Shown: one piece after another, positions 16,239 through 41,739 of the stretch | How the letters are laid out: each line of letters starts with the position of its first letter | Numbering within the stretch: the first letter of the stretch is position 1 | From: Chromatiales bacterium | Lineage (GTDB): Bacteria > Pseudomonadota > Gammaproteobacteria > Steroidobacterales > GCA-2729495 | Length of the DNA: 64,000 nucleotides | Direction of reading: 5' to 3' | Assembly (NCBI GenBank): GCA_024234935.1 | Contig: JACKNI010000007.1 | Location: 11,454 to 75,453 of the forward strand | Position numbers and translations under genes: made by a program | Notes under the pieces: model-generated | What the model was told of the DNA's origin: nothing | What the model saw: the letters and a program-made list of their open reading frames with translations, nothing else | The model's database searches: none

Positions 16239-16249
16239 GACGACGTGGC

Positions 16250-17506
16250 CTATCGGGCTGCCGCGCGCAGGCTGTCCAGCCGCTGCCGGGCCGCCGCAGC
16301 GTCAAACAACGCACTGCCGTTTGCGAGAGCCAGGGCGCGTTCGTAGTAGGCAGCAGCAGCCGTTCCCTGACCAAGCTGGTCCAGGCTCACCGCCAGGTTA
16401 TAGGCATAGTCGGCATTGACCGGTTCGTTGCGCACAGCCTCAAAGAAGGCCTGCTGGGCCTCCGGCCAGCGCCCGGCGCTGACATACTGCAGTCCGAGTG
16501 CGAAGTGCAGCTGGGCGGCGCCTGGCTGCTCGCGCAGCATGTTCTTCAGCCGGGTTTCATTGCCCGTATCGCCGTTGGCTGATGCGCCCGCTGGCAAGGT
16601 CGAGAGGGCGGCAACAGCGGCTGAATTCTTCGGATCAGCTTCGAGCACTGATTTGTAAAGTGACTGGGCTTCCTGCTCACGGTCACTACGCAAGGCGATC
16701 GCCGCCAGTCCAAGCAGCGCATCCACATTGTGCGCGTCAGCCGCCTGCACTTCGCGATAAAGGCTCTCGGCCTGCGCATAGTCGGCAGCCTGAAAAGCAC
16801 TCCACGCTTCGCTGAGTTTTGGAAACAGCGGATTCTCCGTGGTGCCCCGCGAGATCTTGATCTGCGTTGTGGTTTCCGGCGTTTCTACAGCTGGCGTGTC
16901 ATACCAGTCGGTGTCCTTGCCGACCATAGCAGCCGGCGGAGCGGTCGGCGGGTCGGCCACTTCCTTGCGCAGCGGGCGTACCACGGGCTGCGGTGTTGCC
17001 ACTTCGCTGACTTGCTGTTGCGCCGGCCTTGCCTGAAGCGCTTCTGGCGGGATGACCACCGACTGATCGTCCCCGCGGTTTGCCGTGTATTGCAGGAGTA
17101 TGGAAATGGCCGTCGTTACGGTCAGCAGGATCAGTACCAGGCTGCCGATCAGCAGTGAAGTGTTGCGGCGGACGCGTTGCCTGCGCTGGTTGACCGCAAA
17201 CGACTGGGACGCATCGGCTGCATTGTCCTGCGGATCACCGGGCACACCGCCAAAGGTGTCTGCTACCGTCCCGGCATCGTGATGTTGTTCAGCGGCCTGC
17301 GACGCCTGCTGCTGGCCGATGGTGAGTTCGGGCATGCTGTCATCTGCATCGCTCGCCACCAGCGCTTCTGCAGTGCCGCGATTATCCACGGCAAGATGCA
17401 GCTCAACGGTCTGCATATGACTCTCGGCTGATCTCTGCGCGACGATGGTCTCGTCAGCTGCAGGCTGTGCCGGCTTTTTCTGCAGGATGTCGAGCAGGGA
17501 GCTCAT
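16250..17506 (-). CDS. TPR-repeat membrane protein (MshN-like)
   Basis: 418 aa; central TM (LLIGSLVLILLTVTTAISILL) followed by TPR units (ADYAQAESLYREVQAADAHNVDALLGLAAIALR..., AQLHFALGLQYVSAGRWPEAQQAFFEAV...). Confidence 0.7.
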   Translation of the reverse strand: MSSLLDILQKKPAQPAADETIVAQRSAESHMQTVELHLAVDNRGTAEALVASDADDSMPELTIGQQQASQAAEQHHDAGTVADTFGGVPGDPQDNAADASQSFAVNQRRQRVRRNTSLLIGSLVLILLTVTTAISILLQYTANRGDDQSVVIPPEALQARPAQQQVSEVATPQPVVRPLRKEVADPPTAPPAAMVGKDTDWYDTPAVETPETTTQIKISRGTTENPLFPKLSEAWSAFQAADYAQAESLYREVQAADAHNVDALLGLAAIALRSDREQEAQSLYKSVLEADPKNSAAVAALSTLPAGASANGDTGNETRLKNMLREQPGAAQLHFALGLQYVSAGRWPEAQQAFFEAVRNEPVNADYAYNLAVSLDQLGQGTAAAAYYERALALANGSALFDAAAARQRLDSLRAAAR

Positions 17507-19146
17507 GGCGTCGCCCCCGGCTTCCCGGTAGTGCTGAGGGGTGCAGCGGCACTCGCCAGTGCTGGCTGACCGGCCCCGGCACCGCGAATCACGGTGGGAC
17601 GCAGGAACAGCACCAGTTCGCTTTTCTTGACTGCATCGTCGCGATAGCTGAACAGGTCGCCGACACCAGGCAGACGTGACAGCAATGGCACGCCATCACG
17701 CTTCTTTTGACTGGTGTCCTGCATCAGCCCGCCGATGACAACGGTCTGTCCGTCGGCCACCTCCAGCAATGATTCGATCTCGCTGACATGTATCTCCGGC
17801 ACGAGGTTGTCGAAATCCTGACCGAACTCGCTGAGGCGGGGAGCAGGGTCGACGACGTAACCGAGGATGCGCGTGATGGTCGGCCGCACATTCATGCTCA
17901 CGTTGCCGTTGTCGCTGATCTGCGGCGTCACGCTCATGATGAAGCCGACCGGAACGGTCTTGATTTCACTTGTAATGGTCGATCGTTCCGGACCATTGTC
18001 AGATGCTTCGACGATGTCCTGTGAAAGGCTGAAGTAGACGCGCTCATCGACCACCTTGAGCATGGCGGTCTGGTTATTGAGGGCCATGATGCGCGGCGTG
18101 GACAGGACCTTCGTGTCGCCGAACTGCGACAGCATCTTCACAGCGGCCGAGAAGCCACTGCCGTCAGCATCGAAATTGGCGTACTTCATGGTGTAGACAG
18201 GTGCAGTGGAAAGATTGCCGCCGGTCAGTGTGTTGATGAATGAAATGCCGTCCTGGCCGAGTCCGCCGTTTGCAGAGACCCGCGACCAGTCGACACCAGC
18301 CTGGTAGCTGTCGTTGAGTTCGACTTCCACGACCGTCACTTCGATCAGGACCTGGCGTTTTGAGCTGACCGTTACCTGATCGATAAAGGCCTGGACCTTC
18401 TGCTGCTGCACACTGTTGGCGTGGACGCTGATGACACCGGCGATCGAATTGACTGCCACCGGGTCAGGGCCAGCTGCCGCGTCGCTACCGGTTGCCTGAC
18501 CCGTGACGATCTGGCGCAGGTTGTTGCCGAGAACCTGCCAGTAGCTGTTATCGGAGGTGCTCTTGACCGTGGTTCGCGAAATATTCTGGTCATCGCTGTT
18601 CGTGCCGCCGCTGCTCTGCGAATCCTCACGGACGCTGCCACCGGTAGAGGCGACCTGGGTAGCAACAGTGACTTCACCTTCGCTGCCGCGCGCCAGGTTC
18701 ACGTAGTCCACCCGGTAGTTCCGCCAGTACGGTGCGTCCGGCATGACAACGAGCGTGCCGTTTTCGATGTTGTGACGGATGCTGACCTGCCGGCTGATGC
18801 GTTCGAGTATCTGTGGCAGCGTCTGGTTGACGGCGTTGAGCGTGACATTGCCTTCGATGTTGCCCGAGATGTCCACATTGATCGCCGCATCGCGGGCCAG
18901 TGCGAACAACACTTCGCGTACGGGTACGTCAGTCACCACCAGCGTGTAGGTTTCCTGGACTGGCTGCGCGACCGGTGCCGGTGGCGTGGGCAGCCGGGTG
19001 ACCGGTGCGGGAATGATCCTGTTCCCTTCGACCGATTTCAGATGTTCCGGTGCCGGGTCAAACGGCTGCACGGTGCCGCAGCCCGCAACGAGTGCGGCAA
19101 CACCGATGCTCAGGAATGCGCCACGGCGCCAAATGTTCTGTGTCAT
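17503..19146 (-). CDS. secretin lipoprotein (MshL/PilQ/GspD family)
   Basis: ORF 17503-19218. ATG at 19146 preferred (MTQNIWRRGAFLSIGVAALVAGC|G lipobox). C-terminal secretin block GVPLLSRLPGVGDLFSYRDDAVKKSELVLFLRPTVI. Confidence 0.9.
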   Translation of the reverse strand: MTQNIWRRGAFLSIGVAALVAGCGTVQPFDPAPEHLKSVEGNRIIPAPVTRLPTPPAPVAQPVQETYTLVVTDVPVREVLFALARDAAINVDISGNIEGNVTLNAVNQTLPQILERISRQVSIRHNIENGTLVVMPDAPYWRNYRVDYVNLARGSEGEVTVATQVASTGGSVREDSQSSGGTNSDDQNISRTTVKSTSDNSYWQVLGNNLRQIVTGQATGSDAAAGPDPVAVNSIAGVISVHANSVQQQKVQAFIDQVTVSSKRQVLIEVTVVEVELNDSYQAGVDWSRVSANGGLGQDGISFINTLTGGNLSTAPVYTMKYANFDADGSGFSAAVKMLSQFGDTKVLSTPRIMALNNQTAMLKVVDERVYFSLSQDIVEASDNGPERSTITSEIKTVPVGFIMSVTPQISDNGNVSMNVRPTITRILGYVVDPAPRLSEFGQDFDNLVPEIHVSEIESLLEVADGQTVVIGGLMQDTSQKKRDGVPLLSRLPGVGDLFSYRDDAVKKSELVLFLRPTVIRGAGAGQPALASAAAPLSTTGKPGATP

Positions 19147-19364
19147 GACCAATCGTCTCCGCGGATCAGCAACCGTTTCCCGCCGTGCGTTGCCACCGTC
19201 CGGGTAAATCTCCCGCACAGGGCAAAGGCACGGTATCCCCTTAAGTTAAGGCCGGGTCAGGATCCGTTTTTTATGTCTGATGCGGCGTGCGCCAGCTCAC
19301 AGTTGCCGGCTGGCGTGGTCGGGAAACGTGAACGGAGTCACGTGCAGGCAACGCGCACGGGGTA

Positions 19365-21226: not shown

Positions 21227-21862
21227 ATGACACAACAATCGCAGTCCGATCCGGAGCGTTTTGATCCAGTCGCGGGATTTTTTCTTGCCCAGGCAGACCG
21301 GCCGGCCAATCTTGAATCCATCATTGCGGCTGAACTGACGCCGCTGCAACGGGCCCTGCTGGTGATCGATGGCACGGTTACCACTTTTCTGGAGGCATGG
21401 GCGCTGGAGCCGGTGGCGGTGACCTGCCTGTGGCAGCGTCCGCAGAAGCTCGCTGTCGCTGATGGCTGGCTTGATCTGCCGGCTGGCGCGACGGTCACCG
21501 AGCGGGCCGTATTGCTGAGCGGGGCGCGCAGTCGCGGCTTTTTCGCCTATGCCGAGTCGAGGATCAATGCGGATGGGCTGCCGGTGACGATGCGCGGGGC
21601 GCTGGAGGCGGGCGTTGCCGGACTGGGCCAGATCCTGCTTGCCAGCGGACTCGACAGCCGACGCGAAGGACTCTGGTACGGTCGCGAACAGATGAAGTCG
21701 CTGCCGGAGCAGGTAGCCGCCGTGACCGACGGTGATTTCCTGACGCGCAGCTACCGGGTGACTGCACGGGGTCGGCCGCTGATGATGATTACCGAGCGCT
21801 TTGCCTGGCGGCCGATCGCGGTTCCGGTGCCGGCGCTCGGCGCCAGGCTGCCATCCGACTGA
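21227..21862 (+). CDS. chorismate lyase-like (UbiC/DUF98 fold) protein
   Basis: ORF 21068-21862; ATG at 21227 preferred. LQRALLVIDGTVTTFLEAW (cf. DGSMTxxLE) and C-terminal RSYRVTARGRPLMMITERF resemble the chorismate-lyase family. Confidence 0.5.
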   Translation: MTQQSQSDPERFDPVAGFFLAQADRPANLESIIAAELTPLQRALLVIDGTVTTFLEAWALEPVAVTCLWQRPQKLAVADGWLDLPAGATVTERAVLLSGARSRGFFAYAESRINADGLPVTMRGALEAGVAGLGQILLASGLDSRREGLWYGREQMKSLPEQVAAVTDGDFLTRSYRVTARGRPLMMITERFAWRPIAVPVPALGARLPSD

Positions 21863-21893
21863 ATACGATTTGTTACGCAGGGGACTGTTAAAG

Positions 21894-23846
21894 ATGTACA
21901 AGCGCACGCCGGTTTTCATTGCCTTGTTCCTGCACCTCGCTGCAGCCGGAGCCGAAGGCTGGGCGTACTACGGTGGCGACGAGGGTGGAAGCCGCTACTC
22001 GGCACTTGCGCAGATCAACCGGGACAATGTCGGCAAACTGGAACTGGTCTGGCAATACCGGACCGGTGCCGTAACCGCCAACCCGGCGTTGAAATCCATG
22101 ATCGACTTCCAGGCCACACCGACGCTGCTGCCAGCGGCGGCCGGCGGGCATCTGCTGGTCTGTGATCCATTCGGCAAGGTGATCGCACTCGATCCGGCCA
22201 GTGGCGCAGAACGCTGGGCCATGGATCCGAAGGTCGACAAGACGCCGTACGCCGGCCGCTTCAAGTGCAGGGGTGTCGCGTACTGGGCGGATACTGCAGC
22301 GCCGGTGGACGCCGCCTGTGCCCACCGCCTGTTTCTTGCCACGGCTGACAAGCGCCTGATCGCCATGGATGCCCGGGACGGCAAGCTGTGCAGCAGTTTC
22401 GGCGTACAGGGACAGGTGAATGTGGATGTACTGATCAGATCCCTGGTGCCCGCCGATGGCACGCAGCTCACCCAGCTCGTCTCGCCGCCGACTGTGGTGC
22501 GGGATGTGGTGGCCGTGTCTTCGTTCTCCAACAAGTTCAAGACTTCGTCGTCAGTGAATGGCGCCATACGCGGCTTCGATGCGCGTACCGGTGCGCTGCT
22601 CTGGAGTTTCGATCCGCTGGTGCGCGATGCGTCCACCGGGCTGACGCCGACGCCACAGCAGGTCGGTGGTGCGAACACCTGGGTACCGATGTCGGCGGAC
22701 AGTCCGCGCGATCTCCTGTTCGTGCCGACGGCATCTCCTGCGCCCAACTACTGGGGCGTGCACCGGCCGGGCAATAACGAGTACGCGAATTCGATCATCG
22801 CCTTGCGTGGATCGACCGGCGAGGTGGTCTGGCACTTTCAGACCCTGCACCATGATGTCTGGGACCGCGATGCCGGTTCAACGCCGATCCTCACCTCAAT
22901 AGACCGCGACGGCCGCAAGATTCCGGCCGTCATCCAGCTGGTCAAGACCGGCATGGTGTTTGCGTTCAATCGCGAGACCGGTGAGCCGCTGTTCCCGATC
23001 GAGGAGCGACCGGTGCCGACTGACACCGATATCGAGGGCGAGCAACTGTCGCCGACCCAGCCCTTTCCGGTCAGGCCGCCGGTGCTGGTGCGCAATACCA
23101 TCTCGCCCGATGATGCCTGGGGCTTTACGATCTTCGACAGGAACGCCTGTCGCAGGAAGATCGAGTCGATGCGCCATGGCAGTCAGTACGAGCCGATCAT
23201 GAGCACCGGTACGGTCCTCTATCCGCAACCCGGTGGTGGGCCCAACTGGGGTGGCGGGGCATACGATCCGCAGCGCAACCTGCTGATCACGCCGGTGTCG
23301 CAGATTCCCTACTACGTGAAGCTGATCCCCAGGGCAGAGGTTGATCCCGGGTATGCACGGCGGCCGGAGGCCGGTGCACCGATGCAGGGTCCGGGTTATC
23401 TCGGTGACACACCTTACGGTGTCAAGCAGGGTCCGTTGATGTCGCCATCCTTTACCCCGTGTACGGCACCACCGTGGAACATGCTGGTGGCCATCGATAT
23501 GGTCAGCGGCGAGATCCGCTGGAAGATCCCCTTTGGCCGGCTCGACAAGCTGATGCCGTTTCCGATCCCGCTGAATCTCGGCGGACCCTCGGCCGGTGGC
23601 CCCATCGTAACCGGAAGCGGACTGGTCTTCATCGGCGCCACTTCCGATAACCGCGTGCATGCCTACGATATAGAGACCGGCGAGGAGCTGTGGGAAATGC
23701 GGGCACCGACCTCGGCGATGGCCACGCCGATGACCTATGAGGTCGATGGCCGGCAGTACGTGGTGTTCGCAGCCGGCGGGCACTCCTGGTATGACGCCAA
23801 GGGTGTCGATGATTATGTGCTCGCCTACGCGCTGCCCGTGAAGTAG
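21894..23846 (+). CDS. soluble (signal-peptide) PQQ-dependent dehydrogenase, glucose/quinate dehydrogenase-like (paralog 1)
   Basis: ORF 21801-23846; ATG at 21894 (MYKRTPVFIALFLHLAAAGAEG). WAYYGGDEGGSRYSALAQINRDNVGKLELVW matches the start of the Gcd-type beta-propeller. No N-terminal 5-TM anchor. Confidence 0.85.
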   Translation: MYKRTPVFIALFLHLAAAGAEGWAYYGGDEGGSRYSALAQINRDNVGKLELVWQYRTGAVTANPALKSMIDFQATPTLLPAAAGGHLLVCDPFGKVIALDPASGAERWAMDPKVDKTPYAGRFKCRGVAYWADTAAPVDAACAHRLFLATADKRLIAMDARDGKLCSSFGVQGQVNVDVLIRSLVPADGTQLTQLVSPPTVVRDVVAVSSFSNKFKTSSSVNGAIRGFDARTGALLWSFDPLVRDASTGLTPTPQQVGGANTWVPMSADSPRDLLFVPTASPAPNYWGVHRPGNNEYANSIIALRGSTGEVVWHFQTLHHDVWDRDAGSTPILTSIDRDGRKIPAVIQLVKTGMVFAFNRETGEPLFPIEERPVPTDTDIEGEQLSPTQPFPVRPPVLVRNTISPDDAWGFTIFDRNACRRKIESMRHGSQYEPIMSTGTVLYPQPGGGPNWGGGAYDPQRNLLITPVSQIPYYVKLIPRAEVDPGYARRPEAGAPMQGPGYLGDTPYGVKQGPLMSPSFTPCTAPPWNMLVAIDMVSGEIRWKIPFGRLDKLMPFPIPLNLGGPSAGGPIVTGSGLVFIGATSDNRVHAYDIETGEELWEMRAPTSAMATPMTYEVDGRQYVVFAAGGHSWYDAKGVDDYVLAYALPVK

Positions 23847-25143: not shown

Positions 25144-26196
25144 ATGCGTCTGGGTCTGGTGGCCGGCTATTCACCGGCAGCGTTGAGCGTCCCGATGGAC
25201 GAGATCCTTGAAGCCGAGCGGCTGGGTTACGACTCGGTCTGGACTTCCGAAGCCTATGGCAGCGATGCTGTTTCAGTGGCGAGCTGGATCCTGGCGCGCA
25301 CCACGCGCATCCGTGTCGGTACCGCGATCATGCAGATGCCGGCACGCACGCCGACCTGTACCGCGATGACGGCGATGACCCTGAACGCCCTGTCCGGCGG
25401 ACGCTTCCTGCTTGGCCTCGGGCCTTCCGGTCCGCGCGTGGTCGAAGGCTGGTATGGTGTGCCCTACGGCCGGCCGATGACCCGTACCCGCGAATACATC
25501 GACATCGTCCGCCAGATTGCCAGCCGTCGCGCCCCGCTGCGTCACGATGGCTATCACTACCAGATTCCTTATAAAGGTACCGGTGCCACCGGGCTCGGCC
25601 GGCCGATGCAGAGCATCCTGCACGCCGACGGGCAGCTGCGCATCTACACGGCGGCGGTCACGCCGACGGGACTTGCCACCGCCGCCGAGATTGCCGACGG
25701 CGTGTTCCCGATCTGGATGGACCCGGAACGCTTCGATCTCATCGGCCCGCATCTGGCAGCAGGTTTTGCCAAAGGCAGCGAGGAATCGGGACGGAAACGC
25801 ACACTGGCTGATTTCGATGTCGCACCCTTCGTGCCCGTCGCACTGGGTGACGACCTCGATGCCTGCCGGGCGCCGGTTCGTTCACATCTCGCTCTATATA
25901 TAGGCGGCATGGGCCCGCGCCAGAAAAATTTCTATACGGACTATGTACGGCGCATGGGCTATACAGACGAAGCGGAGCAGATCCAGACGCTGTATCTGGC
26001 CGGCCGCAAGGATGAAGCCGCGGCGGCGGTGCCCGACCGTCTGGTCGATGCCATCGCACTGGTCGGGCCGGCGGCGCGCATCCGTGAACGCCTCGCCGTC
26101 TGGAAAGCGGCCGGTGCGCGCGGCGAGATCGGTTCGATGCTGCTGGCGCGTGCATCCGTCGACGCGCTGCGTCTGGTTGCTGAGGAGCTGCTCTGA
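25144..26196 (+). CDS. LLM class F420-dependent oxidoreductase
   Basis: 350 aa: [65 protein letters not shown]...[19 protein letters not shown] recognise this pattern from actinobacterial F420-dependent LLM families. Confidence 0.8.
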
Positions 26197-26248: not shown

Positions 26249-27259
26249 GTGCAGATCGATGTGATCCTCGATGCGCGTGCCAGGGCGCAGGAACTGGCCG
26301 AGCTCGGCCAGCTCGCCGAAAACTGTGGCATCAACGGCGTGTGGGTATCGAGTCTGCTCGATTCACGCGATCCCTTCGCCAACATGGCGCTGCTCGCGCA
26401 GGCCACTTCGCGTATCCGCCTCGGTCCCATCGCGGTGAATCCCTTTGATACACATCCGGTGAAGATCGCTTCGGCGCTGCTGACCTTGAATGAAATGGCT
26501 GCCGGTCGTGCGCGCATTGTCATCGGCGGCGGTGGCGAGGCGCTGCAGGCGCTGGATATTCAGGCCGCGCGCCGTGTGCGCGCGGTGCGCGAGTGCGTAG
26601 AGATCATCCGTGCTGCCGCCAGTGGTGAGCGCATCAGCTACGCCGGCGAACTGTTTCGCGTTCGCAATCTGCAGCTGCGCTGGCTGGAGTCCGTGGCGCC
26701 GGCCATCCATGTCGGCGCAAGCCAGCAGCAGATGCTGCGCATGGCCGCACGCTGTGCCGACGGCATCATGATGAGCGACATGCCGCCGGGTCCGGCATCA
26801 CAGGCCATCGCCACACTCGATGCGGCGCTGGCAGAAATTGGCCGCCAGCGACCCGCATTTGCCACCAATGTCTTCACTGCCTGGCATGTGTACCGGGATC
26901 TCCAGCAGGCGCGGCAGGAAGCGCGCCGCTGGCTGCTGTTGCGGGGCATCTTCCGCCCCTGGCTGCTGGCTGGATTTCTCGATCCGGCGGATGTCGATCT
27001 CGTCATGGCCAGCGAGGCGGCTTTTGCCCGGGCCTTCGCGACCGGCAGTCACCAGGTCGACGGTGTACCGGACCGGCTGCTCGACAAACTGGTCGACAAG
27101 CTCACGGTTTCCGGTTCACCCGACGATCTGGAGCCCGTGATCGGCAAATTGCGCAAGCTGCGCGATGCGGGGCTCGGCAGCGTCGCGCTGCGCCTGTATG
27201 CAGACCCGGCCGCTTCGATCCGCCTGATCGGGGAGCGGGTGGTGCCGGAGCTCGGCTGA
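26249..27259 (+). CDS. LLM oxidoreductase, Mer-like clade (paralog B)
   Basis: 336 aa; GTG start with GGGAG 9 nt upstream. MQIDVILDARARAQELAELGQLAENCGINGVWVSS...VNPFDTHPVKIASALLTLNEMAAGRARIVIGGGG. Confidence 0.8.
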   Translation: MQIDVILDARARAQELAELGQLAENCGINGVWVSSLLDSRDPFANMALLAQATSRIRLGPIAVNPFDTHPVKIASALLTLNEMAAGRARIVIGGGGEALQALDIQAARRVRAVRECVEIIRAAASGERISYAGELFRVRNLQLRWLESVAPAIHVGASQQQMLRMAARCADGIMMSDMPPGPASQAIATLDAALAEIGRQRPAFATNVFTAWHVYRDLQQARQEARRWLLLRGIFRPWLLAGFLDPADVDLVMASEAAFARAFATGSHQVDGVPDRLLDKLVDKLTVSGSPDDLEPVIGKLRKLRDAGLGSVALRLYADPAASIRLIGERVVPELG

Positions 27260-27309: not shown

Positions 27310-28068
27310 ATGCGCTTCCTGCTTTTTCTCAGCTGTCTCGTTTTCTCGCTGACCGCCAGCGCCCGGGACAGCGATGCCGTTCTCCGCGGCAAAGTTATGC
27401 GCGTTACGGATGGTGATACCGCTCAGCTGAAGCTCCAGAGCGGGGCGATCACCGTCCGCTTTTACGGTATCGACGCGCCGGAGAAGAATCAGCCTTACGG
27501 GATGGAAGCCGCATCGGCGCTGCGGCAATTGATCGGCGGCAAGGTGGTCGACCTGATACCGGTAGAGCAGGACAAATACGACCGTCTGGTCGCTGTCGTC
27601 ATGCTGGGCGAGCGCAACGTCAATCTGGAGATGGTTGCGAGGGGCAACGCCTGGGCCTTCCGCCAGTATCTCGGCGAGTTCAGGGACGACCCGCTTTACT
27701 GTGAGTGGGAGGCGAAGGCCCGCGACCAGCAGCTGGGGTTGTGGCGATCAACCGGCAGGAAACGGCATGCGCCCTGGGAGTGGCGTCACCGGGATAGCGG
27801 TGGCCCATACACCGACTACGAGGGCAGCACGATGGCAGATTGTGTGGCCGCAATCCGCGCTGCACCGGCAAGCGCGCCGGTGCCTGCAGGCCGGAAGTCC
27901 GGTGACTGCCTGATCAAGGGCAACATCGGCTCCGGCGGGAAACGCATTTATCATGTGCCCGGCAGCGCATCCTATGCGAACACCAGGATCGACGAGTCGA
28001 AGGGCGAACGCTGGTTCTGCTCCGAGGCGGAGGCACGGGCGGCGGGCTTTCGGGCACCGCGGAATTGA
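27310..28068 (+). CDS. secreted thermonuclease (SNase fold) with C-terminal sunset-type domain
   Basis: Signal peptide MRFLLFLSCLVFSLTASA. SNase block VMRVTDGDTAQLKLQSGAITVRFYGIDAPEKNQPYG...YDRLVAVV...LEMVARGNAWAF. C-terminus CLIKGNIGSGGKRIYHVPGSASYANTRIDESKGERWFCSEAEARAAGFRAP. Confidence 0.85.
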   Translation: MRFLLFLSCLVFSLTASARDSDAVLRGKVMRVTDGDTAQLKLQSGAITVRFYGIDAPEKNQPYGMEAASALRQLIGGKVVDLIPVEQDKYDRLVAVVMLGERNVNLEMVARGNAWAFRQYLGEFRDDPLYCEWEAKARDQQLGLWRSTGRKRHAPWEWRHRDSGGPYTDYEGSTMADCVAAIRAAPASAPVPAGRKSGDCLIKGNIGSGGKRIYHVPGSASYANTRIDESKGERWFCSEAEARAAGFRAPRN

Positions 28069-28196
28069 TCCGGCAGACTGAAATGGCGCAACGGCAGCAA
28101 GAATGATTGCCGGCAGTCGAAGTTTTTTCCTCGGCTTTCGCGATCTGCCCAGGACTCATTCGACCTCGGCAGGGTCAGGCTGGCACAGGAAGGTAC

Positions 28197-28295
28197 ATGG
28201 CGTGGTCAGTTCCGGTTCTCGCCGGGCTATTCGAAATGGGATGGGCTATCGGATTGAGGTATACGGGGGCTTTACCCGCTGAGTATCACCGGTAA
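28197..28295 (+). pseudogene. sugE: 5' remnant of an SMR-family guanidinium/QAC exporter gene (sugE/gdx-like)
   Basis: With AGGAAGG 5 nt upstream, ATG 28197 reads MAWSVPVLAGLFEMGWAIGLRYT (cf. SugE [23 protein letters not shown]). Similarity is then lost and a stop follows after 32 codons, versus about 105 in intact genes. Confidence 0.5.
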
Positions 28296-28356
28296 TCGGC
28301 AGCTCCAGACTTCTGACTGATCGAGAATTCGAGGGATTATCCAGGGAGCGCAGAGA

Positions 28357-29550
28357 ATGAATGACAGTGATATGCCGTCCATGGGTCGGCGCCATTTTGT
28401 CCGGGGTGTCGGTGCCGCTTTGTCATTGGCTCCGTTAATTGGCCGGAGCAATTCGGCTGACGGGTTGCCGGCCGGTATCGTTGACGTCGGCGCACATGAG
28501 AACCCGAAGCGAAATGATGCTTTTCTGAAAGCCTGCCGCGGTGAAAAAGTCGATTACACGCCCATCTGGATGATGCGCCAGGCGGGCCGATACCTGCCCC
28601 AGTACCAGAAGCTGCTGGCCAATAGCGATTTCCTGACCAGCGTGCGCACGCCGGAGATTGCCGCCGAACTCACGATTCAGCCAGTCGACGCTCTGGGTGT
28701 TGATGCGGCGATCTTCTATTCGGATATCACCACCGCAGTCGTGCCCATGGGCATGCAGCTGAGTTATTCAGACAAGACCGGGCCGGTCTTCGGGAACCCG
28801 GTTCGCAGCAAGGCCGACGCGGATCGGCTGATCGTGCCGGAGGACCCGGCCGATGGCTTGGGATTTGTCTACGAAGCCCAGAAAATCTGTGCCCGTGCGC
28901 TGGCCAACCGGGTGCCGCTGATTGGTTTTGCGGCTGCACCCTTCACCATGTCAGCTTATATGGTCGAAGGCGGTTCAAGTACGGCCTTCTCGCTTTTCCG
29001 CCGTTTTGTTTTTGAAGAGCCCGCAGGCTATGCCATCCTGATGGACAAGGTTGCACAGCACACGGCCGGATACCTGAAGGCCCAGGCTGCTGCCGGAGCC
29101 GACGCCCTGATGCTGTTCGATTCCAATGCGGGGCTCTTCGGGCCTCAGGACTACGAAAGCGTGAATCTGCCCTACGTCAAAAGGATCATTGCCGCACTGA
29201 AACCGACCGGGGTTCCGATTATTTACTTTGGCCTCGGCGCACACGGCTCACTGGATATGATCAAAGACTGCGGCGCGGATGTCATCGGCATCGACTATGG
29301 CATGCGACTCGACAACGCAGTGGCACAACTTGGACCCAATGTTTCGGTGCAGGGCAATATCGAGCCACACGTACTCTACCAGTCACCCGAGGAAATCCGC
29401 CGTCGGGTCGCCGAGACGCTCAATGCTGGCAAGGCCGCGCGGGGTCATGTGTTTAACCTGGGGCACGGCGTCCCGCGCTACTCACCTGTGGATCATGTCA
29501 AAGCCATGGTCGACAGCGTGCACGAACTGAGTCAGGCGAGGATGGCCTGA
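28357..29550 (+). CDS. hemE: uroporphyrinogen decarboxylase (HemE family) with an N-terminal twin-arginine signal peptide
   Basis: 397 aa. From about aa 53 it is collinear with HemE (NDAFLKACRGEKVDYTPIWMMRQAGRYLPQY, FYSDIT, YMVEGGSS, HVFNLGHGV). The first ~36 aa (MNDSDMPSMGRRHFVRGVGAALSLAPLIGRSNSA|DG) fit a Tat signal. GGGAG lies 9 nt upstream of ATG 28357. Confidence 0.8.
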   Translation: MNDSDMPSMGRRHFVRGVGAALSLAPLIGRSNSADGLPAGIVDVGAHENPKRNDAFLKACRGEKVDYTPIWMMRQAGRYLPQYQKLLANSDFLTSVRTPEIAAELTIQPVDALGVDAAIFYSDITTAVVPMGMQLSYSDKTGPVFGNPVRSKADADRLIVPEDPADGLGFVYEAQKICARALANRVPLIGFAAAPFTMSAYMVEGGSSTAFSLFRRFVFEEPAGYAILMDKVAQHTAGYLKAQAAAGADALMLFDSNAGLFGPQDYESVNLPYVKRIIAALKPTGVPIIYFGLGAHGSLDMIKDCGADVIGIDYGMRLDNAVAQLGPNVSVQGNIEPHVLYQSPEEIRRRVAETLNAGKAARGHVFNLGHGVPRYSPVDHVKAMVDSVHELSQARMA

Positions 29551-29584
29551 AGTTGCAGTCGGCCCGTAATGTGGCACAACCGAT

Positions 29585-30598
29585 ATGCGTATTGACCTCA
29601 TACTGGAATCAAGCGAGTCCCCGGAACGGATTGCAGAGCTGAGCAAGCTGGCCGAAGACAACGGACTGGGTGGGGTCTGGGTCTCGAACACGCTGAGTGG
29701 TCGGGATCCTTTTCTGGGTTTTCTGGCTGCGGCTCAGGCGACCGACCGCATCCATATGGGACCTATTGCAGTTTCACCTTACGAACTGCATCCGCTGAAA
29801 ATGGCAACATCGCTGCTGTCGCTGAATGAGGCATCCAACGGTCGTGCCCGGATCGTGGTCGGTGGCGGTGGCGTGATTGCGACGAGGGCCATGAATCTGC
29901 GGCCCGAGCGTCGGGTACGGGGTGTTCGCGAATGCATCGAGATCATCAAGCAGGCGGCAACAGGCCTGGAGATGCAATATGAAGGAGAGTTGTTCACCGC
30001 CAAAGGCTGCAAGGCAGCCTGGGTAACGAAGGCACCGCCCGTCATCTATGCTGCTGCCAACAAGCCACAGATGCTGCGCATGGCTGCTCGCTGTGCTGAC
30101 GGCGTGATGCTGACCGACAAGATAGTGGAGCAGATTGGCGGCGTGCGGGAAATCATCGATCCGGCGCTGAAGAGAGCCGGCCGGGATCTAGCCGCATTTC
30201 AGCTCAGCAACTTCTGGGCGTGGCACGTCAAGAAGACACGGGCTGAAGCGGAAACCGAGGCACGCGTGAACCTGACGGTGCGCGATGTGCTGTCACGTGA
30301 AAAGAATTCACACTTCATGAGTGAGGCAGACATGCGCCTTGTCGAAAAGATGCGTCCTTCGTTCCTGGCAGCCTTGCGGAAGCGGTCCCCTGTCTACGAG
30401 GGAGTCCCGGAACGAATCATCAGGTCCCTTGTTGATAACGTCACGTCATGTGCAGGCATCGATGAATTGGACAAGGAAATCGCGCGTTTGCAGGCATTCG
30501 AGTCAGCCGGGTTGACCGGGATTGCCTTGCGTATCTACGAAAAGCCCGAGGAGGCGATTCGACTGCTCGGGAAAAGAGTCGTTCCGGTCTTTGCCTAG
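29585..30598 (+). CDS. LLM oxidoreductase, Mer-like clade (paralog C)
   Basis: 337 aa: MRIDLILESSESPERIAELSKLAEDNGLGGVWVSN...VSPYELHPLKMATSLLSLNEASNGRARIVVGGGG. Starts 34 nt after the hemE-like stop. Visibly lower third-position G+C than its neighbours. Confidence 0.8.
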   Translation: MRIDLILESSESPERIAELSKLAEDNGLGGVWVSNTLSGRDPFLGFLAAAQATDRIHMGPIAVSPYELHPLKMATSLLSLNEASNGRARIVVGGGGVIATRAMNLRPERRVRGVRECIEIIKQAATGLEMQYEGELFTAKGCKAAWVTKAPPVIYAAANKPQMLRMAARCADGVMLTDKIVEQIGGVREIIDPALKRAGRDLAAFQLSNFWAWHVKKTRAEAETEARVNLTVRDVLSREKNSHFMSEADMRLVEKMRPSFLAALRKRSPVYEGVPERIIRSLVDNVTSCAGIDELDKEIARLQAFESAGLTGIALRIYEKPEEAIRLLGKRVVPVFA

Positions 30599-30687
30599 CG
30601 CACTGCTCAATACATTGGCTCCCGCCGTAGAGTCACCTTAAGATCGCTAAGATAACGGTGGTGGTCGGGTAGAGGGAGGAACACGTC

Positions 30688-32676
30688 ATGGCAAATGACA
30701 CGAGACGAGCGACGCGGCCTTTCCCTGCATGGGCAGGACTGGTGGCGCTGCTGGTGGTGTCGGCTGCCATGGCGGGTGATCGCGATGACTGGCAGCACTA
30801 TGGCGGTGGGCCCGGCGGGTCGCATTATTCCTCGCTAGCGCAGATCAATCGCGACAACGTCGGCTCGCTCGCCCTGGCCTGGAGCTACCGCACTGGCGAC
30901 ATCGAGCGGCATCCGGAACACCGGCCGCTCGCCGCACTGAACGTGACGCCCATCCTGCTGCCGAAGGCGGCGGGCGAGTCGCTGGTGTTCTGCTCGGCGA
31001 TGAATCGCGTGATCGCGCTGGATCCGGCGAGCGGCAAGGAGCGCTGGGTCCACGATCCGCAGATCCGCATCGGGCCCGTCGGCAGCAAGTTCCTGTGCCG
31101 GGGTGTGGCCTATTGGGAGGACAGCGATGCAGTTGCTGGTGCCAGCTGCAGGCACCGCATCTTCACCGCGACCAATGACTTGCGACTGATCGGTATCGAT
31201 GCGCTGAGCGGCAAGCCCTGCGGGGACTTCGGCACCGCCGGGGTGGTGGACGTGCAGCCGGATATCCACGACGACGCCCCGGATCTCAAGGAAGGCGATG
31301 TGCAGTTCTCGGCGCCGCCGGTGACCATCGCTGATCTCGTCGTGATCGGGTCTTCCGACAACAGCAAGTTCTGGCGCGCCGACAGCCCGCGGGGCGAGGT
31401 GCGGGCCTACGACGCGCGTACGGGTGCGTTGCGCTGGAAGTTCGACCCGATTCCGCACGAGGCGGAAAATGCTGAAGCCCTGGGCTGGACCCGTGAGGGA
31501 CTGGAGCACACGGGCGGCGCGAACGTCTGGAGCATGATGTCGTCTGACCCGGCGCGCGGGCTGCTTTTCCTGCCCACCGCGACGGCCGCGCCAAACAACT
31601 TCGGCGGCAATCGGCCCGGCGACAACCGTTATGCCAACTCGGTTGTGGCACTGCGCGCAGCCGACGGCACTGTCGTCTGGCACTTCCAGATCGTGCACCA
31701 CGATGTCTGGGACCTCGACCTTCCGGCGCAGCCGATCCTCGTCGACCTGAAGCGCAACGGGAAACTGCTGCCGGTGGTCATCCAGCTGACCAAGCAGGGG
31801 CTGATCTTCGTCTTGAACCGGGAAACGGGCGAGCCGGTGTTTCCGGTGGAGGAGCGGCCGGTGCCGACTGACGGCGTGCCTGGTGAGGTGCTCTCGCCGA
31901 CACAGCCGTTTCCGGTTCGTCCTGCACCGCTCGGCGTAGCGAGGTATACGCCGGAGCAGGCCTGGGGCTTCACGCTGTTCGATCGCTCGGCCTGTCGCAG
32001 GAAGCTCGCGTCCTTCGGTCGTTCAGGACTCTATGAACCACCGGGCTTCGAAGGCACGCTGATGGCCTCATCGGCCAACAACTGGGGCGGTGCGGCTTTC
32101 GATCCCGAGCGTTCACTGCTCGTGTTGCCGGTCTCGCAGGTCCCCATCTACACGCGGCTCAAGCGCACGGCCGACGTGACGCCCGAAGAACTCGATCAGC
32201 CACGGATGGGGCCGATCGGGCCGCCGACGGCGATGGCGGGTACACCTTATTCGTTTCAGTTCGCGCCGGTGCTCTCGCCGCTGTTCTCGCCCTGCACCCC
32301 GCCGCCCTGGGGCGAGTTGATGGCGCTGGATCTGTCCGGCGATACCGGCACGAAGTGGCGCTTCACGCTCGGTACGCTCGAAAAGCTGATGCCTGTGCCG
32401 ATACCATTGCCCTTCGGTACGCCGCTGGCCGGTGGCCCGACTGTCACCGCCGGTGGACTGGTCTTCATCGGCGCGAGTGCGGACGAGAAGTTCCGCGCCT
32501 TCGACATCGACAGCGGCAAGAAACTCTGGGAGGTGAGCACGCCGGCGTCGGCGATGGCGACACCGATGACCTACTCGGTGGGCGGCCGTCAGTTCGTGGT
32601 GGTGGCGGCCGGTGGACACATCGTGGCCGGCTTCCGCAACGTCTCGGATTACCTCGTGGCCTATGCGCTGCCCTGA
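30688..32676 (+). CDS. soluble PQQ-dependent dehydrogenase (paralog 2)
   Basis: 662 aa; GGGAGGAA SD; signal/anchor WAGLVALLVVSAAMAG. WQHYGGGPGGSHYSSLAQINRDNVGSLALAW. Collinear with the 21894 gene along its whole length. Confidence 0.85.
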   Translation: MANDTRRATRPFPAWAGLVALLVVSAAMAGDRDDWQHYGGGPGGSHYSSLAQINRDNVGSLALAWSYRTGDIERHPEHRPLAALNVTPILLPKAAGESLVFCSAMNRVIALDPASGKERWVHDPQIRIGPVGSKFLCRGVAYWEDSDAVAGASCRHRIFTATNDLRLIGIDALSGKPCGDFGTAGVVDVQPDIHDDAPDLKEGDVQFSAPPVTIADLVVIGSSDNSKFWRADSPRGEVRAYDARTGALRWKFDPIPHEAENAEALGWTREGLEHTGGANVWSMMSSDPARGLLFLPTATAAPNNFGGNRPGDNRYANSVVALRAADGTVVWHFQIVHHDVWDLDLPAQPILVDLKRNGKLLPVVIQLTKQGLIFVLNRETGEPVFPVEERPVPTDGVPGEVLSPTQPFPVRPAPLGVARYTPEQAWGFTLFDRSACRRKLASFGRSGLYEPPGFEGTLMASSANNWGGAAFDPERSLLVLPVSQVPIYTRLKRTADVTPEELDQPRMGPIGPPTAMAGTPYSFQFAPVLSPLFSPCTPPPWGELMALDLSGDTGTKWRFTLGTLEKLMPVPIPLPFGTPLAGGPTVTAGGLVFIGASADEKFRAFDIDSGKKLWEVSTPASAMATPMTYSVGGRQFVVVAAGGHIVAGFRNVSDYLVAYALP

Positions 32677-39348: not shown

Positions 39349-41739
39349 TCAGTGACCGGCGCGATATTCCTTTGCGCTGCGGAACTGCAGCGCTTCAAGC
39401 GGTGTAGCCTGATACGACTGCGCGATGCGTTCGGCCGGCGGTGTGCCATACAGTGTCGTGCGCTGTACCGGGCGACGGCCGATGCTTTCGATCAGCGCAT
39501 CCATGCGCTCCGGTGACAATTCCTGCCCGAAGGCTGCACCTGCTGCACGAGAGATGCTTTCGTTCATCAGTGTGCCGCCCAGGTCGTTGGCACCGGCGTT
39601 GAGGATGCGCGCCGCACCTTCTTCGCCGAGTTTTGCCCAGCTCACCTGGATGTTGTGCAGCACCGGACCGAGCACGAGCCGGGCGATGCCATGCATCAGC
39701 ATGGTTTCACGCCAGGTCGGGCCGGGGCGCGCCAGGCCGCGACGGTAAACCGGCGCTTCCATATGCACGAAGGGCAGCGGCACGAATTCGGTGAAACCAC
39801 CGGTTTCGACCTGCAGGTCGCGCAGGCCGAGCAGGTGTCGCGCCCAGTGTCGTGTCGTTTCGAGGTGGCCGAACATGATCGTGGAAGTCGTGCGCAGGCC
39901 GAGTGCGTGCGCTGTGCGCATCACACCAAACCAGGCGGCGGTATTCACCTTGTCCGGGCAGATATAGCGTCGCACCTCGTCGTCTAGAATCTCGGCGGCC
40001 GTGCCGGGCAGCGTGCCGAGGCCGGCCGCCTTGAGCTGCCGTAAAAAGGTGTCGAGCGGAATCCCCAGCGTCTTGGCACCCTGCGTGACTTCGAGCGGCG
40101 AGAAAGCATGCACGTGTATGTCTGGTGCGGCCTCCTTTACGGCATGCAGCACGTCGAGGTAGGTCTGCCCGGTGAAGGCCGGATGGATGCCACCCTGCAG
40201 GCATACTTCCGTTGCACCGCGTTGCCAGGCTTCTTCAGTGCGTCGCGCGACCTCGCTCATGTCGAGTACATAGGGTGCGCCGCGCAGGTCTTCGTGGGTC
40301 TTGCCCTTGGAGAAGGCGCAGAAGCTGCACTTGTAGGTACAGAGGTTGGTGTAGTTGATGTTGCGGTTGACCACGTAGCTGATCGTGTCGCCGCAGCTTT
40401 CCGCGCGGGCCTCGTCGGCGAGCTGCAGCAGATGCTCGCAGTCGGACCCGCGCAGTGAAAACAGATGCGTGACCTCGTCTTCGCTGAGGCGCTCGCCCTG
40501 GCGTGCGCGCTCCATCAGCTGCACTGCCGGCGAGTCCGGTCGCCGGAGGGTGGTACCCGATGCAGCAACTGGCGGTGGCGCCAGTCCCGCGCCGGGTGAC
40601 CAGTCATCGGTACGGGCGAGGCCGCTTGCATCGGCGTGTTTCAGGACGCTGGCGACAAGTCCCGGGTGCAGCCACTCCTTGCGCTGTTCAATGTAGTGCG
40701 GATAGATCGTGAGCCGCGGCACGAGCGTCTTGCCGGTCGCACGGGTCTGCTCCGCAAGGCTGTCCAGATGTGGCCAGGGGGATTCAGGGTTCACGTGATC
40801 CGGCGTGACCGGCGAAACGCCACCCCAGTCGTTGCAGCCGGCCGCGATGATCGCAGCGAGCCGGCCAGCGTTGAGGTTGGGTGGTGTCTGCAGGCTCATT
40901 GCAGCACCGAAGACATGCCGTGCCATGGCGATGGTCCACAGCAGTTCCTCAACGGGCGGTGCCGGCGCCTTTGCCATCTTCGTGCCCGGCTTCGGCACGA
41001 AGTTCTGCAGGATCAGTTCCTGCAGATGACCGTGCTCGGCATGCAGGTCGCGCAGTGCGAGCAGGCTCAGCAGGCGCTCCTCGCGTGTTTCACCGATGCC
41101 GATCAGCAGGCCAGAGGTGAGCGGTACGCGAGCCTGGCCCGCAGCGCGTATCGACAGCAGCCGGACGGTGGGCGCCTTGTCCGGAGAGCCGAAGTGCGGT
41201 CCGCCACGCTGCGTGAGGCGCGATGCCGCCGATTCCAGCATGATGCCCATCGACGGAGCCACTTCGCGCAGGCTGCGGAATTCCTCGTATGACATTACGC
41301 CGGCATTCAGGTGCGGCAGCAGCCCGGTTTCCCGGCGTACCAGTTCCGCCATCGCCCGCAGATAGTCGAGCGTGGACGCAAACCCCAGCGTGGCGAGGGC
41401 CTCGCGGGCTGCGCGATAACGCAGTTCCGGTTTGTCGCCGAGCGTGAAGAGCGCTTCATGACAGCCCGCGGCCTGTCCGGCACGGGCGATGGCAAGTACC
41501 TCTTCCGCTGTCAGGTAGACGTTCGTCAGTCGCCGCGGCGTTTTGGCGTAGGTGCAGTAGTGACAGACATCGCGGCACAGTTCTGTCAGCGGGATGAAGA
41601 CCTTCCGCGAGCAGGTGACGATATCGCCGTGCCCCGCATCGCGCAGCGCAGCTGCTGACGCCATCAGTTCAGGCAGCGGTGACTCGCCGAGCTTCAGCAG
41701 CTCCGGCAGTTCGGGATGCGCAGCGGCCGGTGTTTTCAA
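39349..41739 (-). CDS. fbiC: FO synthase FbiC (fused CofG + CofH radical-SAM domains)
   Basis: 796 aa with two radical-SAM cysteine triads, CRDVCHYC and CTYKCSFC. TTG start overlaps the cofC stop (TTGA). Confidence 0.9.
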   Translation of the reverse strand: MKTPAAAHPELPELLKLGESPLPELMASAAALRDAGHGDIVTCSRKVFIPLTELCRDVCHYCTYAKTPRRLTNVYLTAEEVLAIARAGQAAGCHEALFTLGDKPELRYRAAREALATLGFASTLDYLRAMAELVRRETGLLPHLNAGVMSYEEFRSLREVAPSMGIMLESAASRLTQRGGPHFGSPDKAPTVRLLSIRAAGQARVPLTSGLLIGIGETREERLLSLLALRDLHAEHGHLQELILQNFVPKPGTKMAKAPAPPVEELLWTIAMARHVFGAAMSLQTPPNLNAGRLAAIIAAGCNDWGGVSPVTPDHVNPESPWPHLDSLAEQTRATGKTLVPRLTIYPHYIEQRKEWLHPGLVASVLKHADASGLARTDDWSPGAGLAPPPVAASGTTLRRPDSPAVQLMERARQGERLSEDEVTHLFSLRGSDCEHLLQLADEARAESCGDTISYVVNRNINYTNLCTYKCSFCAFSKGKTHEDLRGAPYVLDMSEVARRTEEAWQRGATEVCLQGGIHPAFTGQTYLDVLHAVKEAAPDIHVHAFSPLEVTQGAKTLGIPLDTFLRQLKAAGLGTLPGTAAEILDDEVRRYICPDKVNTAAWFGVMRTAHALGLRTTSTIMFGHLETTRHWARHLLGLRDLQVETGGFTEFVPLPFVHMEAPVYRRGLARPGPTWRETMLMHGIARLVLGPVLHNIQVSWAKLGEEGAARILNAGANDLGGTLMNESISRAAGAAFGQELSPERMDALIESIGRRPVQRTTLYGTPPAERIAQSYQATPLEALQFRSAKEYRAGH

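Follow-up and report, generated by a model that had tools for sequence, protein, structure and literature searches.

Results

Gene structure and start codon

The 64-kb stretch of contig JACKNI010000007.1 analysed here (the window, 64,000 nt at its full length) carries on its forward strand, at 28357..29550, a gene for a paralog of the uroporphyrinogen decarboxylase HemE (UROD in eukaryotes) with a predicted twin-arginine translocation (Tat) signal. The open reading frame (ORF) is present exactly where a preliminary description of this DNA had placed it, with 397 codons for 397 amino acids (aa) plus the stop, and the Shine-Dalgarno-like GGGAG reported there was found at 28344..28348 on the same strand, 8 nt 5' of the ATG at 28357. 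Three parts can be distinguished in the product, namely a predicted Tat signal peptide (residues 1-33, 28357..28455), a variable linker (residues 34-52, 28456..28512) and a HemE/UROD catalytic TIM-barrel domain (residues 53-397, 28513..29547), the last supported by profiles, fold and motifs. Upstream, the frame is closed by an in-frame TGA at 28318-28320, and ATG 28357 is the first start codon past it; three ATG codons, for residues 1, 6 and 9, precede the two arginines R11-R12 (28387-28392) of the signal. An in-frame TTG near 28466 had been named as a possible true start that would remove the signal. Such a codon does exist, at 28465, but it is not the only one, as three TTG codons follow the twin arginines (28420, 28426 and 28465). 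None of the three has a well-placed Shine-Dalgarno sequence, and none is conserved across the aligned homologs.

The N-terminal leader

The protein starts with MNDSDMPSMGRRHFVRGVGAALSLAPLIGRSNSADG. Behind a short n-region, the twin-arginine motif G-R-R-H-F-V-R occupies residues 10-16, with R11-R12 and F14, and leads into the h-region GVGAALSLAPLIG, a Gly/Ala-rich and uncharged stretch of 13 aa with a mean Kyte-Doolittle hydropathy of 1.68. R-S-N-S-A comes after it, RSNS forming the c-region, and a cleavage site of the small-x-small type is predicted between SNS and A or between NSA and D.

A search over 5.8 billion proteins for homologs with the same extension returned 13 more HemE homologs with an equivalent leader, 69-94% identical to the protein of the window and following the pattern RRxF(V/I/M)xGxGA..L.L.PL. 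R11, R12, F14, A20, P26 and L27 are invariant in the 13 aligned sequences. One of the homologs, P0009, is annotated from an internal Met, and its contig carries MDRRHFVQGVGA in frame upstream. The linker varies freely in sequence and, through in-frame indels, in length, with the frame preserved throughout. At the position where short homologs start (MNDTFLKACRGE...), the Met is replaced by Arg in most clade members, R52 in the window, so that no canonical start remains there. The signal has a ratio of nonsynonymous to synonymous substitution rates (dN/dS; pairwise Nei-Gojobori) of 0.11-0.57, the linker one of 0.5-1.5 and the core one of 0.09-0.16, a pattern as would be expected of a functional signal peptide followed by a spacer. 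In the comparison with the next closest relative, on contig L093, the synonymous rate (dS) of the first 52 codons is 0.07-0.10 as against 0.43 in the rest of the gene, on tiny counts; this could reflect a constraint at the mRNA level near the start or a recombination boundary.

For the recognition of Tat signals we used a rule set of our own (not TATFIND): a hydrophobic residue has to follow RR, and both an uncharged stretch of 12 residues or more with moderate hydropathy and a small-x-small site have to be present. Every one of the 14 clade members passes, as against none of 106 other HemE homologs; among 211 six-frame ORFs of the window with at least 100 aa, the hemE ORF is the only one to pass, and shuffles of the protein's own N-terminal residues do so in 0.9% of cases. 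A scan of the N-termini alone with 18,950 NCBIfam and 24,736 Pfam models hit only Tat-signal models (TIGR01409, TIGR02811, the FtsP/SufI, CopA and Csp1 leaders, and PF10518), all of them below their curated cutoffs, and these matches are supportive rather than decisive.

The headline of the preliminary description, a twin-arginine signal on a HemE-type enzyme, is thus borne out by a conserved leader, by purifying selection and by a rule test specific to the clade. Instead of the typical HemE, cytoplasmic and free of any targeting sequence, we found an N-terminal extension of about 50 aa that is conserved and shows Tat features and, judged by its sequence, the protein is very probably exported by the Tat system.

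The catalytic core

From about residue 53 onwards the protein had been described as a typical HemE, and this holds, as the curated hemE cutoff is passed, the motifs are kept and the fold is that of UROD. The catalytic landmarks listed at the time (MMRQAGRYLPQY, YSDIT, YMVEGGSS and NLGHG) are all present. Pfam URO-D (PF01208) matches residues 52-390 (E 6.5e-119, 397.4 bits against a cutoff of 23.9), and the hemE equivalog model TIGR01464 scores 354.7 bits, above its curated cutoff of 302.95, while profiles of the methyltransferase relatives in the HemE superfamily score far lower. The motifs begin at residue 74 (RQAGR), 122 (SDI), 201 (YMVEGG), 254 (FDS) and 367 (NLGHG); we take the two Arg of RQAGR, the Asp of SDI, the Tyr of YMVEGG, the Ser of FDS and the His of NLGHG to correspond to the human catalytic residues R37, R41, D86, Y164, S219 and H339. 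In a sequence comparison with all solved structures, bacterial and human uroporphyrinogen decarboxylases came out best, with alignments that begin at residue 49-52 and keep the catalytic motifs. Computed from 13 aligned sequences, an AlphaFold model reaches a predicted local distance difference test score (pLDDT) mostly above 85 in the core and below 50 in residues 1-49, and Foldseek superimposed the core on human UROD and Shigella HemE with template modelling scores of 0.92-0.95, root mean square deviations of 1.7-1.9 Å and 39-41% identity. By score, residues and fold the protein is a catalytically intact HemE paralog with a predicted decarboxylase activity, and it is likely to perform HemE-type decarboxylation chemistry.

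Four substitutions set the Tat forms apart from 107 homologs without a Tat signal, namely C96V, W/F/H257N, F/L341Y and P/Q/A374R. Two of them lie beside catalytic motifs, N257 directly after FDS and R374 after NLGHGVP, and leave room for an altered substrate. The Cys at position 96 is kept by all 107 homologs without the signal, and its loss in the Tat clade fits an oxidising compartment.

A single clade of Tat forms

In a neighbour-joining tree of the core domain, the 14 Tat forms fall into a single clade, within which the protein of the window groups with P0001 and P0002. P0015, the only other member of this clade, starts at an internal Met and may have a mis-annotated start. Because all Tat forms share one clade, the tree indicates that the signal was probably acquired once, in the clade's ancestor. 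The hosts are uncultured bacteria, and the few members with source names are labelled Gammaproteobacteria. When the alignment of the Tat forms was scanned against genome contigs, the best hit among the matches listed was a 61%-identical sequence from Chloroflexota.

A HemD-like partner with a signal of its own

In five lineages (L003, L007, L008, L012 and L095), a gene of the HEM4/HemD family is adjacent to the Tat-hemE gene, and one also lies next to the HemE fragments of L104 and L132, which run off the contig before reaching their N-termini. These HemD-like partners bear classical signal peptides of the Sec type, of about 30 residues. The model of a HemD-like protein (pLDDT 90.7) shows an N-terminal helix at residues 2-25, and its top Foldseek matches are uroporphyrinogen III synthases. 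At the sequence level these proteins are far from characterised HemD, with 62-90 bits against cutoffs of at least 246 bits, and a sequence comparison with solved structures gave no match.

The nearest HemEs without a Tat signal, P0013 and P0016, are 74-77% identical and are found in specialised clusters that comprise two to three HemE paralogs, an ortholog of the HemD-like gene, PNPOx-like proteins, flavin adenine dinucleotide (FAD) reductases, a ferredoxin, a TonB-dependent receptor and an OppA-type ATP-binding cassette (ABC) importer. Here the HemD-like orthologs have 274 aa and are without any signal. In the HemD-like family (84 members), a signal is present in nearly all the 45 closest clusters, save a few truncated start calls, and absent from the more distant short forms. 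The signal status of the HemD-like protein therefore tracks that of HemE, which argues that both gained export signals together, one for Tat and the other for Sec; such a joint gain is hard to explain unless both proteins really are exported.

Clusters with two or three HemE paralogs, all past the hemE cutoff, were seen in uncultured bacteria related to the Tat-hemE hosts, on L096 (10001-12139), L097 (4507-6645 and 11554-12585) and L098. They also encode a signal-less HemD-like protein, PPOX-class proteins, FAD reductases of the geranylgeranyl-reductase family and a YfhL ferredoxin, and further an ApbE, an OppA-type ABC importer and a TonB-dependent receptor, and they look like an uncharacterised tetrapyrrole-transforming pathway. 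A MatE efflux gene is included in the cytoplasmic sister clusters as well. Distant members of the HemD-like family, about 40% identical, occur in cyanobacteria (Nostoc, Oscillatoriales) and green algae (Coccomyxa, Trebouxia).

Receptor and redox genes around the relatives

Gene context could be recovered for ten distinct lineages of Tat-hemE. An orthologous TonB-dependent receptor of about 800 aa adjoins the gene in seven of them (L003, L007, L008/L009, L010, L011, L012 and L095), with 61-85% identity between loci, and in an eighth lineage (L094) an unrelated receptor lies two genes away. Typing against NCBIfam and solved structures yielded nothing beyond generic receptor matches, and these stayed under all curated cutoffs for heme, siderophore and B12 receptors. 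In L008/L009 a Fur gene stands beside the module.

Redox proteins recur in this surrounding. In L011, the Tat-hemE gene is followed 3' by a gene for an exported fusion of a signal peptide, a CxxCH motif and a PNPOx-like split barrel, and in L099, L100 and L106 the same kind of fusion is encoded ahead of the signal-bearing HemD-like gene. A small cytochrome c gene comes after the HemD-like gene in L095. The exported fusion, its heme-c motif reading CAECH, was located at 2408-3259 of L100, 5030-5878 of L106, 6391-6951 of L011 and 1724-2530 of L098, and it also occurs in L099, L107, L112 and L125. Compared with solved structures, the cytochrome c-PNPOx fusion resembled nothing but, weakly, general stress protein 26. 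FAD amine-oxidase neighbours in L010, L011 and L098 were considered as protoporphyrinogen oxidases and dropped, their similarity being limited to the dinucleotide-binding end.

The surroundings of the gene in the window

A truncated sugE gene had been noted upstream of hemE, and the remnant is real. It comprises 32 codons of this small multidrug resistance (SMR) transporter on the forward strand (28198..28295), matches positions 1-24 of the 104 of the SugE model NF008512 (E 5.8e-5) and was also recovered with a tblastn probe. It lies in a separate ORF, 61 nt 5' of hemE and not in the hemE frame, and the remainder of sugE is absent from the window. Directly 5' of the remnant, at 27310-28068 on the forward strand, a secreted-type staphylococcal-nuclease homolog with a C-terminal 'sunset' domain (NF051437) is encoded.

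Remnant, Tat-hemE and the following gene share a compositionally distinct patch of 2.6 kb (28100..30650) with a GC content of 0.55-0.60 against 0.64-0.69 in the flanks; GC at third positions is lower, too. The patch was probably acquired or rearranged as a block. Around it, only short chance matches were found as repeats, and no insertion scars or attC-like sites were recognised.

As for the genes downstream, the preliminary description was right about their identity. A Mer-like luciferase-like oxidoreductase (LLM class; here LLM3) follows 34 nt 3' of hemE on the same strand (29585..30598), and then a soluble pyrroloquinoline quinone (PQQ) dehydrogenase (30688-32676). A scan of 27900-30800 for promoters and terminators gave nothing above expectation and no terminator-like site in the gap between hemE and LLM3, which may be co-transcribed with Tat-hemE. 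The link that this arrangement had seemed to imply is not supported as a conserved one; the neighbours are common only to two public contigs (L001 and L002) that are 99.96% identical to this region of the window. A Mer-like LLM 37% identical to LLM3 was seen about 1.6 kb upstream of a signal-bearing HemD-like gene in L100 (733-1746) and L106 (3356-4354), and the LLM beside hemE in the window may not be pure coincidence.

The next closest relative after these contigs is P0002 on L093, where 88% DNA homology extends from 28344 to 29550 of the window (1427-2633 of L093). This span covers the ribosome-binding site and the gene, starting 13 nt upstream and ending at the stop codon, and the flanks are unrelated. 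Its extent suggests that Tat-hemE moved as a single, cassette-like unit in the sub-lineage of the window. The gene is intact, with a core dN/dS of 0.15 in the comparison with L093.

Other genes of the window

Elsewhere in the window, a fused F0 synthase of the FbiC type (Radical_SAM plus CofH_C, 795 aa, 39349-41739, reverse strand) points to coenzyme F420 biosynthesis. Four LLM-class oxidoreductases of the F420 type are encoded at 2474-3502, 25144-26196, 26249-27259 and 29585-30598, one above the cutoff of TIGR03559 and three Mer-like but below it. Such an F420 gene set is unusual for a probable gammaproteobacterium. The PQQ dehydrogenase downstream of LLM3 has a paralog at 21801-23846, also on the forward strand; the two are 50% identical, of the soluble glucose/quinate type without a membrane anchor, and flank the LLM, nuclease and hemE region as a pair. 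A secretion block of the MSHA/type IV pilus type on the reverse strand (13261-19218) includes a T2SSF platform protein, an MshE-type ATPase, a TPR protein and a secretin.

Discussion

Of the readings offered in the preliminary description, a periplasmic tetrapyrrole-modifying or salvage enzyme is the one we favour, as relatives of the gene adjoin a TonB-dependent receptor and a Sec-exported protein of the HemD fold. The best explanation overall, to which we would give about an even chance, is that a Tat-exported, periplasmic HemE decarboxylates a tetrapyrrole imported through the receptor; that the role of this reaction is the salvage of the imported tetrapyrrole is a conjecture we rate just short of even. 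Export, cleavage, substrate and the direction of salvage are what we infer from the features described above.

In this proposal, the protein would fold and dimerise in the cytoplasm and then be exported by Tat in its folded state, with its signal cleaved near residue 33-34. The ancestral module would have consisted of the TonB-dependent receptor and the Sec-exported HemD-fold protein, often accompanied by the exported fusion of cytochrome c and a PNPOx-like split barrel. The receptor would bring in an exogenous, acetate-bearing tetrapyrrole of the uroporphyrin(ogen) type, from which HemE would strip the acetate carboxyl groups in the periplasm, yielding a product of the coproporphyrinogen type with four fewer negative charges, and this less charged product could pass on into the cell and feed heme or tetrapyrrole salvage. 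Porphyromonas gingivalis, which is without HemE, grows on coproporphyrin III and not on uroporphyrin III, and it acquires porphyrins via a TonB-dependent receptor (PMC6173696). The exported cytochrome c-split-barrel protein is a speculative candidate for the reductant that would turn an imported oxidised porphyrin into a porphyrinogen. The gene in the window would be a copy moved away from its partners into the low-GC patch, intact and under purifying selection. Extended to a so far unrecognised periplasmic tetrapyrrole branch in environmental Gammaproteobacteria, with a dedicated TonB-dependent receptor importing uroporphyrin-type compounds from outside, probably in oxidised form, reduction by the cytochrome c-split-barrel protein and processing by HemD-like protein and HemE to coproporphyrinogen before uptake, the proposal becomes tentative, and we consider it possible with the balance tilting against it. 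The gene of the window would then be a dispersed member of such a system.

Several observations weigh against this proposal. The chemistry is demanding, as HemE requires reduced porphyrinogens, which are easily oxidised, and no periplasmic reductase has been demonstrated; hydroxymethylbilane is unstable, which leaves it chemically unclear how a HemD-like enzyme could act on a substrate brought in from outside. An inner-membrane importer was not identified in the loci of the periplasmic type, and a search for Fur boxes 5' of the receptor operons, the hemE operons and the gene of the window found none that beat shuffled sequence. In a metagenome scan seeded with the HemD-like family, many loci pair a signal-bearing HemD-like gene with a receptor in the absence of HemE (L099-L103), which makes HemE an accessory part of a broader periplasmic module. 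Neither receptor nor HemD-like gene nor cytochrome c-PNPOx partner is present anywhere in the 64-kb window, and the gene on L093 sits among toxin-antitoxin and Mrr genes, so this sub-lineage gives no pathway context. With regard to the signal itself, relatives reach 10-15.8 bits with TIGR01409 (cutoff 16.7) and at most 17.7 with PF10518 (cutoff 22.7), and the N-terminus of the window protein has no TIGR01409 match, only a sub-threshold one to TIGR02811 at 13.3 bits.

These low scores would also suit a mis-called start or a leader without function, the option raised earlier in which translation begins downstream, for example at TTG 28465, and yields an ordinary cytoplasmic HemE. Three in-frame TTG codons (28420, 28426 and 28465) are on offer, and gene callers did pick an internal start for P0009 and perhaps for P0015. 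Yet the extension is kept in 13 further homologs, its RR, F and PL are invariant, the frame survives indels in 14 sequences, dN/dS of the signal stays below 1, the canonical Met is mostly gone, no TTG is conserved or equipped with a well-placed Shine-Dalgarno sequence, and the HemD-like partner acquired a signal in parallel, all of which leaves this option very unlikely. Poorer still are the prospects of a local chimera, likewise suggested before, in which hemE would have received an unrelated leader when a rearrangement truncated sugE. The remnant 61 nt upstream and the odd composition invite such a thought, but the same leader recurs in relatives with different and unrelated contexts (L003, L007, L008, L010-L012 and L093-L095) and must therefore predate any local rearrangement; moreover, the remnant ORF ends at 28295 and the stop at 28318-28320 separates it from the hemE frame, so that we give a fusion next to no credence. 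There is rather more to be said for a stranded relic, that is, a Tat-HemE transferred without its partners that has no pathway role here, or that does the work of a normal cytoplasmic HemE, either ahead of export or in its place. The 64 kb without a partner gene, the low-GC patch next to a broken sugE and the homology to L093, whose limits at the gene plus 13 nt suggest mobility of a gene-sized piece, speak for it; an intact ORF with a core dN/dS of 0.15 and the conservation of the signal residues in the sub-lineage of the window, P0001 and P0002 speak against it, and partners could sit elsewhere in the genome. On balance we regard a relic as unlikely, at somewhere near one chance in eight.

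Two further readings accept export and differ in what the enzyme would be for. In one, an exported precursor would be matured by periplasmic HemD-like protein and HemE to coproporphyrin(ogen), secreted to bind a metal such as Cu or Zn and re-imported via the receptor as a metallophore. Biosynthetic-type enzymes beside a TonB-dependent receptor are the usual layout of metallophore loci, and the Fur gene beside the module in L008/L009 agrees with it. To our knowledge, however, export of hydroxymethylbilane or uroporphyrinogen has no precedent, no precursor exporter was seen in the loci of the periplasmic type, no Fur box was found, and the transporter beside HemE in the cytoplasmic sister clusters is an OppA-type importer and not an exporter, notwithstanding the MatE efflux gene there. 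Two published points do favour this reading: periplasmic enzymes mature pyoverdine (PMC9305348), whose logic it follows, and a possible role as a chalkophore has been proposed for coproporphyrin III (PMC7558416). On balance, a metallophore appears improbable. In the other reading, the exported enzyme would act on a different substrate, such as a corrinoid or siroheme-type precursor, uroporphyrinogen I or a natural product, within a catabolic or remodelling module. The four clade-specific substitutions, two of them (N257 and R374) beside catalytic motifs, would accommodate this, as would the distance of the HemD-like partner from characterised synthases and the resemblance of the sister clusters, with their two to three HemE paralogs, FAD reductases, YfhL-type ferredoxin and PPOX-class proteins, to a multi-step pathway. 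Against it stand the curated hemE equivalog cutoff, which the protein passes, the retention of every catalytic motif and the 39-41% identity to proven UROD/HemE with a near-identical fold, and we consider a substrate of this kind equally improbable.

If the preferred reading of a periplasmic, receptor-linked HemE is true, an exported HemE with a HemD-fold protein and a receptor would imply that some tetrapyrrole chemistry is able to proceed in the periplasm, and that uroporphyrins and other early heme intermediates are perhaps traded or scavenged in natural communities, with a bearing on heme and tetrapyrrole auxotrophy and on cross-feeding among uncultured bacteria. It would also be a clean case of two enzymes of one pathway relocated together, one via Tat and the other via Sec. 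There is a realistic chance that the gene marks a new periplasmic tetrapyrrole-processing pathway.

Comparison with known systems

A full-text literature search across about 8.3 million papers for periplasmic or Tat-dependent HemE, exported HemD and receptor-linked HemE paralogs found no report of any of them. Known bacterial HemE is cytoplasmic, and by its predicted export signal the protein of the window departs from every described bacterial HemE. With the housekeeping enzymes (Shigella/E. coli 3cyv; human 1uro and 1r3y) it shares fold and catalytic motifs; their structures are without its extension of about 50 residues (Tat-type signal plus linker), they differ from the Tat clade at C96V, N257, Y341 and R374, and the relatives of the Tat form are linked to a TonB-dependent receptor and not to heme-biosynthesis genes.

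Plant UROD, for example that of tobacco (1j93), carries an N-terminal targeting extension that is removed after transport. It is likewise a HemE enzyme with an N-terminal targeting sequence, but its chloroplast transit peptide leads to the normal site of tetrapyrrole synthesis, whereas the Tat signal of the window protein would lead away from the compartment of the pathway.

Import systems provide two further points of reference. The outer-membrane route for exogenous tetrapyrroles, including intermediates of the heme pathway, resembles that of HusA/HusB (P. gingivalis), HmuR, PhuR and ShuA; those systems take up heme, protoporphyrin or coproporphyrin for processing in the cytoplasm, and none is known to include periplasmic homologs of HemE or HemD. 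EfeB (YcdB), a DyP-type protein, is exported by Tat. It acts on porphyrin outside the cytoplasm within an uptake system (PMC3577903). The likeness therefore lies in a folded enzyme and an extracytoplasmic porphyrin; unlike the window protein, EfeB has an unrelated fold, contains heme, acts on the heme iron and not on side-chain carboxyls, and has no module of TonB-dependent receptor and HemD-like protein.

The maturation of pyoverdine is a parallel to the metallophore reading. Some of its enzymes are exported by Tat. PvdN, PvdP, PvdO and PvdQ are periplasmic enzymes of a biosynthetic type encoded with a TonB-dependent receptor (PMC9305348), as HemE and the HemD-like protein would be in the relatives. 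Their product, however, is a peptide siderophore made by other chemistry, and its precursor exporter is known.

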